64,000 nucleotides of DNA from Butyrivibrio sp. (GTDB lineage: Bacteria; Bacillota; Clostridia; Lachnospirales; Lachnospiraceae): positions 94 through 64,093 of the forward strand of contig JAAVHB010000058.1 in assembly GCA_014799955.1 (NCBI GenBank), given 5' to 3'. Within the stretch, counting starts at the first letter, position 1. The number at the start of each line of letters is the position of its first letter. Position numbers: made by a program. Of the stretch, positions 12,001 through 15,000 are shown one piece after another.

Positions 12001-15000
12001 GCTCAACCATTTTATCCGAAATCATTTTTACCTCCCGTTCGGCTGAATATTTTCCGTTTCTATATAGTATATTCCCTCACGCGTAAGAAAACAAGAAAAT
12101 ATTTTTTGCGGATATACCGAAAAAAGCGCCAAAAGTTCTATATTTTCTTTACTATTTGAATTATAATGTGCTATAATACTATACACCAAATCTTTTACGG
12201 AGATTTTTTTATGAAAAAACGTGTTGCTATCATAATTATGATAATAATTCCGATGATAATAATCGCGGGATTTATAACAATTACGTCAATAAACACCATA
12301 GACATAAGCCAGAAAATACTTAATTCAAGCGAAAACAACGAACCCGCCAACAATTCGCGCGCCCAGTATTCGGTGAGTGTTTCCATATCCAAAAGCTGGA
12401 AAAACGCCGACGGCTCAGTCGGCGCGCAGTATGACGGATACATATACAATAACACAAATTACGATTTTACCGAATGGGAACTTGTGATACCGGTACCGGA
12501 GGGCAGCTATGTGGACAGCTATTGGGACGGTCAGTGCTATGTGGACAAAGACAATCTGATAGTTCTTCCCGAAAGCTATAACGGCACTATTTACGGCCCC
12601 GACTCACGCAAATTCGGCTTAATTATGTATACTCCGTCGGAATACAGTGTTTCCGACATATCAATCGAGGGACGCTTGATTTTCAAATACCGTTCGTCTC
12701 CTGTTTTTATCATTCTTATCGCGGCAAGCGTATTATGGGCGGTAGTTCTTGTCATAATGCTTATAGACCGTTACCGCACCCGCAGCTTTGAACAGCGCCG
12801 TAAGCATGATGAAAAAATAATAACGCAGTCAATAATGACATTCGCCAATTTCATCGACGCGAAGGACCCTTACACAAAGGGCCACTCATCCAGAGTGGCG
12901 CTTTATGCCAAGGAAATCGCAAGGCGTATGCATATGTCGCCCACCGAGCAGCAGCAGCTTTACTACATAGCCCTGATGCATGACGTGGGTAAAATCGGAA
13001 TTCCCGATGCGATTCTCAACAAAAAAGGAGCGCTAACTCCAGAAGAGCGCCATGTAATCGAAAGCCATACAACCATCGGCGGCGATATGCTCAAGGACTT
13101 CTCCTCGCTTGACGGAATAATCGAGGGCGCGCTCTATCACCATGAGCGCTATGACGGCAAGGGATATCCAAAAGGCATAGCCGGTCAGGATATTCCGCTC
13201 TATGCCCGCATTATCGGCATATGCGATTCGTATGACGCGATGTCAAGCAACCGCTGCTACCGCAAGCATCTTGACAAAGAAACGATACTTTCGGAGCTTC
13301 ACAATAATTCCGGCAGCCAGTTTGACCCCGATATCGTACTGTATATGGTCGAGATGATTGAAGACGGATTTGTAAATAAAATAAATTTCCTTACGGACTA
13401 ACGCCAACAGGCGGTTTATATTATTTTTTGCAGCATGACCACAGCCTTGAAGCGGCCGCCTTCGGCGGTCAGCTCCATACTGCCGTTGTATTTATCGGCT
13501 ACCCTTGCCACGTTTCCCAGTCCTATTCCGTGCATTCCTTCCTGACGCTTTGAGGACACGGGCAGCCCGCTTATATCGTCCCATTTTATTTCGCCGCAAA
13601 AGCTGTTGCACACCTCTATCAGATAAAAATTTCCGTGTATTTTCGAGCTTATTTCTATATATTTATCTATAACACATCCTGCGCAGGCTTCAAGCGCGTT
13701 AGTCAGCAGATTGCTGACTGCTATCCCCAAGTCGAAAAGTTCCAGATTCCAACCGTTCTTCTGCTTTTCATACCAAAAATCCGTTCTGAATTCGATACCG
13801 AGGCTTACCGCACGCTCCCCGGCATCGTTTATTATCACATCCGTCACGGGATTTCCGGTATTGATTCCGAAACCCGTTCCTCTTATACTTTCTCCCGCCG
13901 TACCGATATACTCCATGGCCTCGTCATACTCGCCCCTTGCAAGAAGTCCCTGCAAATTCATGAAATGGCTGCGCATATCGTGCTGCAAACGTCTTGCCGC
14001 TTCATCCTCCTGATTCTCCTTTGCAATCCTGCGTTCAAGCTCCTTAATCTGCCGTTCCCGCACAAAGCTTCCGAGCCTCTCCTCCTCCAGTTTTCGCATA
14101 CTGCCGCAAATATACACGGAAACCATCACTCCGGCAAACACCAGAAGCACCGTCGCCGGGATTATCGCAAGAAATGACGGATACATTTCATAAAGCTCAA
14201 AATAAGTGCCGTCTTTTACAACGGCAAGCATACGGTAGATAACATTGACAAAAACGGTCTCTATAAGCGGAATAAAAACAAGCCACGCAAGCTCCCTCCA
14301 GAGAATTTCGCATGAAAGCTTAGCGCGTATCAGCTTACCTGTCAGTACGGAAACCGCCGAGCAGAAAGCGAGCCTCAGCGCAACCGTGCCCGCGCAAAAA
14401 AGCCTTACCGCCAGATACGCGGTCTTCATATCTGCTATGCGGTATGCCACGGCGTCAAACGCCACATGATTTATACTCTGTACTATAAGCGTACAGCCCG
14501 TTTGAATGCAGTACGCCGACAGCACGAGAAAAATAACCCGCTGCGGCCTTGCCGCCCTGCAAAACGTCCATCCTGCCGCAAGAACCGCGGTTATAAAAAC
14601 AATTGCCGCCCATCCCGGAAACGTAAGCACAGTCACCTTAAGGGCATAAACCGCCCCATACAAAACAAGGGCGGACCACACGCGAAGCCCGGCGTATTGC
14701 CTGCCTCCCGCAAGTCTGCCCACATATAACGCGAAAATCACCGAATTCCCCAGAATTTCGATTCCCAGCGCCACATTGTTAAATATCTTTATACCGTCCG
14801 GATTCATAAAACCCTTTCTTATTTCGTCTGCTTTACTTCCTTCGCCGCAATATGACGCATATATGCCTTCACGAAATCCCCGTATTTATACTTACTTATA
14901 AGCACGCTGTCCCCGCAGCTCATTACCGCCTCCGTGCGGCTGTAGCTTTCCACATAATCAAGGTTAACCAGATATCCCCTGTGTATTCTGAAAAACTGCC

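Follow-up and report, generated by a model that had tools for sequence, protein, structure and literature searches.

HD-GYP enzymes are the predominant hydrolases of cyclic dimeric GMP (c-di-GMP) in clostridia, and a 2021 survey of HD-GYP architectures names no extracytoplasmic sensors of these enzymes other than dCache, PBPb and CHASE2, and states that no such protein had been characterised experimentally by then. The terms 'CBM' and 'carbohydrate' receive 0 mentions in that survey. In Butyrivibrio proteoclasticus, family 2a carbohydrate-binding modules (CBM2a) are carried by Cel5B, Cel5C, Cel9C and Xyn10C and occur as tandem copies in two non-catalytic proteins, and the genome paper mentions no signalling protein (PMC2914790). 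In rumen Fibrobacter, c-di-GMP rises on cellulose, the sensors being unknown (PMC6851124). Here we analyse a gene of Butyrivibrio sp. (assembly GCA_014799955.1, contig JAAVHB010000058.1; the whole 64,000-nucleotide (nt) stretch analysed is referred to as the window) whose product joins a predicted extracytoplasmic CBM2 to a cytoplasmic HD-GYP domain. On balance, we favour the view that this protein is a bitopic membrane cyclic-dinucleotide phosphodiesterase (PDE) whose CBM2 binds a soluble or single-chain beta-1,4 glycan and thereby alters HD-GYP activity and c-di-GMP. Full-text literature searches returned no paper on the CBM2/HD-GYP architecture; together with the 2021 survey, this agrees with an earlier note on this DNA, made from the sequence alone, which knew of no characterised example.

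Domain layout and the extracytoplasmic module

The protein of 396 amino acid residues (aa) consists of a first transmembrane helix (TM1), an extracytoplasmic domain of ~135 aa, a second transmembrane helix (TM2) with a linker helix, and an HD-GYP domain, laid out as follows.

12211..13401, + strand: coding sequence, 396 aa plus stop, membrane-bound CBM2/HD-GYP protein
aa 1-4: cytoplasmic N-terminus, MKKR
12223..12291 (aa 5-27), + strand: TM1, VAIIIMIIIPMIIIAGFITITSI, read from the sequence; AlphaFold2 (AF2) helix 3-26
aa 28-163: extracytoplasmic segment, which holds the beta-sandwich
12367..12681 (aa 53-157), + strand: CBM2 beta-sandwich, from Pfam CBM_2, profile against PDB, AF2 and Foldseek
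CBM2 codons, + strand: W63 12397-12399, GAQYD 12421-12435, W89 12475-12477, W105 12523-12525, Y123 12577-12579
12700..12768 (aa 164-186), + strand: TM2, PVFIILIAASVLWAVVLVIMLID, part of the continuous AF2 helix 164-218
12769..12840 (aa 187-210), + strand: basic cytoplasmic linker helix (RYRTRSFEQRRK...) joining TM2 to the catalytic domain
12841..13335 (aa 211-375), + strand: HD-GYP domain (Pfam HD_5)
HD-GYP codons, + strand: Y221-T-K-G-H225 12871-12885, H257-D258 12979-12984, HHERYDGKGYP 13138-13170

Basic residues flank both transmembrane helices on their cytoplasmic sides (MKKR and DRYRTRSFEQRRK), and the N- and C-termini are both cytoplasmic. The AF2 model of the full-length protein, built from a 105-sequence alignment with a mean predicted local distance difference test (pLDDT) of 91.2, contains a helix at residues 3-26, a beta-sandwich at 53-157 and a single helix at 164-218 in which TM2 continues unbroken into the HD-GYP domain. 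A Pfam scan found neither HAMP nor PAS between TM2 and HD-GYP. Topology, Pfam and AF2 thus agree on the order transmembrane helix, CBM2, transmembrane helix, HD-GYP that the earlier note had given. The CBM2 starts ~25 residues past TM1 and stops ~7 residues short of TM2; the tether on the TM2 side is constant in length across the family, and extension is seen on the TM1 side only. In one family member (P0109), an imperfect repeat of ~45 residues, rich in Glu and Gln (…EQAESLQEEHTESLQEEQAGFVQEE…), separates TM1 from the CBM2 (alignment columns 85-131); it is the sole long extracellular spacer seen in the family alignment.

Sequence profiles and predicted structure both place the extracytoplasmic domain in CBM2. 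On the isolated segment aa 44-170, Pfam CBM_2 (PF00553, cut-off 24 bits) gives 26.5 bits (E=8e-6) over profile positions 12-98 of 101; in the full-length protein it reaches 23.0 bits, just below the cut-off, so that the match is borderline for this single sequence. Among the 120 best homologues, the majority have PF00553 in their precomputed annotation. When a 42-sequence ectodomain profile was compared with PDB sequences, 14 of the 15 matches were CBM2, chitin-binding or xylan-binding modules, and the fifteenth was an unrelated transporter (E=0.97). The top match is the CBM2 of Clostridium cellulovorans EngD (3ndy_E, E=1.5e-11), and further matches include Cellulomonas fimi Cex (E=2.4e-8), the Pyrococcus furiosus chitin-binding domain (3.2e-8) and Streptomyces ChiC. 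In line with this, the ectodomain modelled alone by AF2 (pLDDT 95.5) finds the Cex CBM2a 6qfs as its best Foldseek match in the PDB (TMq 0.73 / TMt 0.81), followed by the EngD CBM2 3ndy_E (TMq 0.75 / TMt 0.81), with a probability of 1.0 to CBM2a structures; the chitin-binding CBM2s come next, and 2cwr, 2rtt and 1exg are also among the top matches. The full-length model gives the same CBM2 result.

Taken together, homology and predicted fold identify the extracytoplasmic domain as a true CBM2. Judged by sequence, it is CBM2a-like, its nearest counterparts being the CBM2a modules on Butyrivibrio/Firmicute glycoside hydrolase family 5 (GH5) cellulases and on tandem-CBM proteins. The CBM2 assignment of the earlier note is thereby sustained by Pfam CBM_2, by the family profile against the PDB and by the predicted fold, and both profiles to which it had pointed for HMMER, CBM_2 and HD-GYP, are matched (see below for HD_5). 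That note had allowed that the domain might not fold as a CBM; the AF2 model superposes on CBM2a with TM-scores of 0.73-0.81. The motifs that it quoted are all present: W63, W89, W105, N80-N81-T82, Y123-N-G-T-I, F135-G136, H257-D258 and HHERYDGKGYP (310-320). The operational CBM definition of CAZy, a module within a carbohydrate-active enzyme (CAZyme), does not cover this domain, as HD-GYP is its only partner.

Candidate ligand face and catalytic centre

Three aromatic residues of the module, W105, Y123 and, less certainly, W63, line up with the ligand face of CBM2a. In every alignment W105 pairs with Cex W54, and Y123 with Cex W72, and EngD likewise has Tyr at the Y123 position (GYNGTI, as against SYNGTI here). 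In an L-INS-i (MAFFT) alignment of 163 sequences, among them canonical CBM2s of actinobacteria as well as intermediate Firmicute modules, W63 falls on Cex W17 and on the Trp of EngD 'NSWGSG' and P. furiosus 'DWGSG'. The HMMER alignment to EngD also puts W63 on the canonical surface Trp, with an insertion of 4-7 residues in the beta1-beta2 hairpin. W89 aligns at the position of Cex Trp38, which we take to be a buried core residue. The 'three spaced Trp' that the earlier note counted in its CBM2 pattern are all present, but the putative ligand-face aromatics are W63, W105 and Y123, with W89 at the Trp38 position.

Conservation was counted in 105 family members that are 41-85% identical overall. 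Both W63 and W105 are invariant (105/105 each), while position 123 is Tyr in 76/105 and Asn in 17/105; all three positions are aromatic in 78/105. The accompanying residues are G71 (104/105), Q73 (94/105), Y74 (97/105), D75 (98/105), D102 (101/105) and S103 (98/105). We read this aromatic and polar pattern as that of a putative binding site that has been maintained. The GAQYD stretch has its counterpart in GAEYD of the chitin-binding CBM2 from P. furiosus, a motif whose two acidic residues presumably lie on the chitin-binding surface. The polymorphic site after the first Trp is Gly in subfamily 2a (cellulose) and Arg in subfamily 2b (xylan) (PMC2914790); G71 falls on Cex G20 in the ungapped alignment and would then be 2a-like, an equivalence made uncertain by the hairpin insertion.

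The catalytic domain is matched by Pfam HD_5 (PF13487) at 133.3 bits (E=9e-39, cut-off 27.2), by PF01966 at 73.2 bits and, at E=2.6e-39 but short of the equivalog cut-off, by the NCBIfam NosR-family PDE model. Its best solved relatives by sequence are Vibrio cholerae V-cGAP3 (5z7c, E=4.6e-43) and Persephonella marina PmGH (4mcw, E=4.8e-33), and its best fold relatives by Foldseek are DvhD (9rbz, TMt 0.85) and PA4781 (4r8z, TMt 0.77). Seven of the eight PmGH metal ligands are aligned, and the eighth is replaced, Tyr221 standing for Glu185. The equivalent positions, taken from an alignment with the chain numbering offset by 6, are as follows.

H225: PmGH H189
H257 / D258: PmGH H221 / D222
H286: PmGH H250
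H310 / H311: PmGH H276 / H277
D339: PmGH D305
Y221: PmGH E185

All aligned metal-ligand positions and Y221 are invariant in the 105 homologues, and the RxxK motif appears as R348-C-Y-R351, as in V-cGAP3. In PmGH, E185 binds the third metal, and the Tyr-type enzymes that lack it are binuclear and do not hydrolyse the linear dinucleotide pGpG (5'-phosphoguanylyl-(3'-5')-guanosine) (2021 HD-GYP survey). By sequence comparison, the HD-GYP domain is placed in the binuclear Tyr-type subclass and not in the trinuclear Glu185 type. From these positions, an active, binuclear enzyme that forms pGpG is predicted, and c-di-GMP is the likeliest substrate of this predicted PDE. The HD-GYP domain thus looks intact, as the earlier note had it, with its HD pair, its HHERYDGKGYP motif and seven of eight metal ligands aligned.

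Proposed signal and competing explanations

We propose that the enzyme acts as a dimer and that the face formed by W63, W105 and Y123, together with the polar residues Q73, D75 and S103, would bind a beta-1,4-linked glycan. The ligand would most likely be a soluble oligosaccharide or a single polymer chain (cello-, xylo-, manno- or chito-type) able to cross the wall by diffusion. Glycan occupancy would shift TM2 and the linker helix and change HD-GYP activity, which in turn would alter the c-di-GMP pool, with pGpG as the probable product because Tyr-type enzymes skip the second step, and c-di-GMP-controlled behaviour would change downstream. A soluble or single-chain ligand is favoured because short tethers fix both ends of the module to the membrane. 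The termini of a CBM2 presumably lie together at one end of the sandwich, where we take a disulfide to join them in Cex; with tethers this short, the module would therefore stand on the membrane beneath the wall, beyond the reach of fibre. In diderm Treponema the module would be periplasmic, which likewise makes a soluble oligosaccharide or single chain more plausible. More tentatively, and as a possibility rather than an expectation, we suggest that a cellulase-type CBM2a has been recruited as a receptor, through which plant-cell-wall breakdown products or single chains would directly gate second-messenger turnover in fibre-degrading Lachnospiraceae and rumen Treponema.

Several observations weigh against this proposal. 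The equivalence of W63 with Cex W17 needs a hairpin insertion of 5 residues, and an ungapped HMMER alignment with Cex instead sets W63 on W12, which we take to be a buried core residue, and Gly68 on W17. About a quarter of the members have no aromatic residue at position 123. The seven gene neighbourhoods compared show no conserved CAZyme, sugar-transporter or c-di-GMP effector neighbour. The assignment of homologues to Treponema rests on the taxonomy of metagenome-assembled genomes (MAGs), which can be wrong, and an intact copy is found in Fusibacter sp. 3D3, so the ligand need not be derived from plant fibre. Finally, among PDB sequences the catalytic domain is closest to V-cGAP3, an enzyme specific for 3'3'-cyclic GMP-AMP (3'3'-cGAMP), and c-di-GMP is thus not certain as substrate.

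Four other explanations can be set beside glycan gating by soluble or single-chain ligands. The earlier note had supposed that contact with insoluble plant fibre may be coupled directly to second-messenger levels, with adhesion versus motility as the possible output; in this reading, type-A binding of crystalline cellulose, xylan or chitin fibres would switch the enzyme. The CBM2a-like fold with its three aligned aromatic positions and Gly71, where CBM2a has Gly and CBM2b has Arg, would suit such contact, and the CBM-bearing RsgI anti-sigma factors offer a precedent for biomass sensing (PMC6852018; 4b9c). Direct contact with insoluble fibre is nevertheless unlikely, and we see very little chance for this version: the tethers are short at both ends and no member has a long TM2-side linker, a flat fibre outside the Gram-positive wall could not reach the binding face, and MAGs assigned to diderm Treponema/Spirochaetes have homologues with every motif, whose sensor would be periplasmic there. 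Alternatively, the CBM2 might bind the cell's own beta-1,4 glycans, such as nascent peptidoglycan, wall polysaccharide or secreted exopolysaccharide, and feed envelope or matrix status to c-di-GMP, which classically controls exopolysaccharide production; dietary plant glycan would then not be the signal. The module is no more than a few nanometres away from the membrane, CBM2 includes binders of chitin, a polymer of N-acetylglucosamine, with GAQYD resembling the chitin-binding GAEYD of P. furiosus, the neighbourhoods show no CAZyme linkage, and Fusibacter sp. 3D3 has an intact copy, all of which would fit sensing of the own envelope. However, the nearest non-signalling relatives sit on GH5 cellulases and on tandem CBM2a proteins of fibre degraders, and the family occurs chiefly in MAGs from rumen and herbivore gut; we consider a self-envelope sensor unlikely.

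The module might also be no receptor at all. In that case the CBM2-derived fold would serve dimerisation, stability or localisation only, and a constitutive enzyme would be controlled by its expression or by metal and redox state, an idea in keeping with the redox sensitivity of diiron HD-GYPs (2021 survey). Some members have indeed lost W105 or Y123, as in Butyrivibrio sp. FCS014 (L006), and two members (L017 and L019) have Phe for W89 and a large insertion. Yet W63 and W105 are invariant and Q73, D75, D102 and S103 near-invariant beside the ligand-face aromatics in the 105 sequences, and TM2 continues as a helix straight into the catalytic domain, which makes a purely structural role quite improbable. 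The same architecture could, alternatively, degrade 3'3'-cGAMP or another cyclic or linear dinucleotide. V-cGAP3, the best solved match (E=4.6e-43), shares PYTxGH and RxYR with this enzyme; on the other hand, most characterised HD-GYPs are c-di-GMP PDEs and they are the predominant c-di-GMP hydrolase type in clostridia (2021 survey), GGDEF genes are present in related genomes, and c-di-GMP-bound DvhD and PA4781 are equally good matches by fold. A different substrate therefore seems rather unlikely to us.

Gene context, family and relation to known systems

Two signals lie upstream of the coding sequence.

12199..12210, + strand: ribosome-binding site GGAG(A), then a T7 run, then ATG; GGAG is 8 nt upstream of the start
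12148..12177, + strand: promoter-like TTTACT-18 nt-TATAAT with TG before the -10, 10/12 matches, by consensus only

The mechanical open reading frame (ORF) is 12166-13401 (+). The MKK N-terminus read from the ATG at 12211 is common to all aligned homologues, independent gene calls on other assemblies also give 396 aa, and the promoter-like site at 12148-12177 overlaps the in-frame ATG at 12166. The start at 12211 is favoured because of this overlap, and the ATG at 12166 is ruled out by the homologue N-termini, the independent gene calls and the promoter-like site; the same evidence, together with GGAG, supports the start in the earlier note. The T7 run (window 12203-12210) has one T more or one T less in related-strain contigs from two runs, and this length change might make the spacing from Shine-Dalgarno to start polymorphic, as strain variation or as homopolymer assembly noise. 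In one metatranscriptome, a 1766-nt contig runs with ~95% identity over the HD-GYP gene into the convergent kinase gene; contigs of this kind cannot prove transcription or strand. Depth rises at window 12969-13209 in all three runs, and many contigs end at 13125-13169, a range that falls in or just upstream of the HHERYDGKGYP codons (13138-13170). This conserved HHERYDGKGYP stretch is common to contigs of other HD-GYP genes in the same communities.

The neighbouring features are listed below.

9756-12025, - strand: two aminotransferases, divergent from the HD-GYP gene
13416-14807, - strand: AgrC-like GHKL kinase (HATPase_c_5, multi-transmembrane N-terminus), convergent
14819-15544, - strand: REC-LytTR regulator, 241 aa; the listed ORF 14819-15877 over-extends across the tRNA
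15683-15754, - strand: tRNA-Gly(GCC) as typed by ARAGORN, Rfam 68.2 bits
15923-17827, - strand: GH5 cellulase gene, 2.5 kb from the HD-GYP gene
21898-21969, - strand: second tRNA, Rfam 68.2 bits, a score identical to that of the first

The flanking genes are all on the strand opposite to the HD-GYP gene, which therefore stands alone. At the tRNA 15683-15754, every run shows a very high depth spike, as a conserved tRNA should. Within the window, Rfam at the gathering threshold gave the two tRNAs only and no c-di-GMP riboswitch, and scanning for motifs turned up neither a GGDEF gene nor another HD-GYP gene. Two homologues have GGDEF or GGDEF-EAL genes within ~10 kb. The GH5 gene, separated from the HD-GYP gene by the convergent two-component pair and the tRNA, encodes a lipoprotein-type signal (…FSACGKG), a Ser/Thr/Asp-rich linker and a C-terminal region of ~215 aa, which has no Pfam match and no PDB sequence match and may be an unclassified binding module. 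Kinship of this region with CBM2 was rejected, as hhalign gave a probability of 0.3 against the sensor profile and no PDB match was found. Across the neighbourhoods of seven family members, only the aminotransferase pair and the AgrC/LytTR-like pair persist, and these in close relatives alone: the kinase/regulator pair is kept in a 79%-identical relative (L081), in which the GH5 neighbour is already absent, and is lost in more distant ones. No CAZyme is conserved in these seven contexts, and a functional link between the HD-GYP gene and GH5 was rejected. The distance of 2.5 kb to a GH5 endoglucanase that the earlier note had given is correct, but the proximity is incidental.

Full-length matches to the CBM2/HD-GYP protein form at least 120 clusters at 90% identity. 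Named carriers include Butyrivibrio sp., Lachnospiraceae, Lachnospira and Eubacterium MAGs from yak, sheep, deer, reindeer and rabbit gut, Fusibacter sp. 3D3, and several Treponema/Spirochaete rumen MAGs. In public annotation the members are plain 'HD-GYP domain-containing proteins'. At the translated loci of Fusibacter and two spirochaete MAGs, W63, GAQ(Y/F)D, W89, DSxWNG, DYN and FGF are kept. In Butyrivibrio sp. FCS014 (L006), His replaces W105. Two members from Eubacterium and Spirochaetales MAGs (L017:8001-9329 and L019:1568-2893) have a ~45-residue insertion in the sandwich, Phe for W89 and no GAQYD; this divergent subgroup may bind another ligand or no ligand at all.

When 1.84 billion representative sequences were searched exhaustively with HMMER for the ectodomain, 3135 proteins matched at E<=1e-3, 591 of them at E<=1e-10. 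The best 150 of the 3135 comprise HD-GYP proteins of ~400 aa, secreted two-module tandem proteins of 270-300 aa, GH5 cellulases with two N-terminal modules (P0133, P0136), GH18 enzymes and a giant protein with 15 repeats. Among these 150, HD/HD_5 is the only signalling output on the sensor, with no GGDEF, EAL, kinase or methyl-accepting chemotaxis protein, and CBM_2 was matched in 100 of the 115 representatives scanned. The sensor module shares 30-34% identity with CBM2 modules that Firmicute enzymes or tandem proteins carry. Five Firmicute proteins (P0126, P0139, P0143, P0131, P0122) consist of tandem CBM2-like repeats alone, in 2 to at least 12 copies, behind a shared and distinctive N-terminus of basic residues, one transmembrane helix and then SVGYSLL(S/A)(Q/E)QLSV(S/E)GTANL. 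Proteins of the P0126 type are probably the non-catalytic tandem-CBM2a proteins of B. proteoclasticus.

The ligands of CBM2 are known and easily assayed (cellulose, xylan, chitin and their oligomers), so the input of this enzyme is directly testable, which is unusual for its class. As a widespread family of Butyrivibrio-like fibre degraders, it is a concrete candidate for a sensor linking cellulose to c-di-GMP, and it would represent the reuse of a CAZyme module for signalling outside the RsgI/sigma-I paradigm. If glycan gating is true, HD-GYP enzymes would gain their first extracytoplasmic sensor with a defined ligand, and dietary glycan would for the first time be tied by a direct molecular link to c-di-GMP in the herbivore gut.

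Compared with the CBM2a modules of CAZymes and tandem proteins (Cex 1EXG/6QFS; EngD 3NDY; B. proteoclasticus Cel5B/Cel5C, Bpr_I0736/I1599), the sensor has the same predicted fold and an aligned aromatic triad. Unlike them, it is inserted between the two transmembrane helices of a signalling enzyme and accompanies no CAZyme, and it has the 4-7 residue hairpin insertion and a GAQYD/DSxWNG signature. As we read the sequence, it also lacks the terminal disulfide that actinobacterial CBM2s, going by Cex, presumably have. The binuclear HD-GYPs PA4781 (4R8Z) and V-cGAP3 (5Z7C) share its HD_5 domain, His/Asp ligands, HHExxDGxGYP motif, Tyr at E185 and RxYR; their N-terminal regions are cytoplasmic REC or tandem HD-GYP domains, whereas the present enzyme is membrane-bound with an extracytoplasmic sensor. 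The dCache-, PBPb- and CHASE2-HD-GYPs (Thermotoga maritima TM1170, TM1682) follow the same logic, from an outside ligand domain through the membrane to HD-GYP, with a sensor fold other than the CBM2 beta-sandwich found here.

The RsgI biomass sensors of cellulolytic clostridia, of the anti-sigma-I type, carry their sensor on a long extracellular stalk. They share with this protein the concept of an outside CAZyme-type module as receiver, in their case CBM3, PA14 or GH-like modules (4B9C; PMC6852018). In contrast, they use another CBM family and a single transmembrane helix rather than two, and their output is sigma-factor release and transcription rather than second-messenger hydrolysis. A Pfam scan of the protein found no RsgI_N domain, and its neighbours are the aminotransferases and the AgrC/LytTR-like pair, with no adjacent sigI. 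By this comparison, the resemblance to RsgI is one of concept only. Taken together, both parts of the protein and its logic of sensor, transmembrane helix and output are familiar, and their combination is widespread in herbivore-gut bacteria and unstudied.

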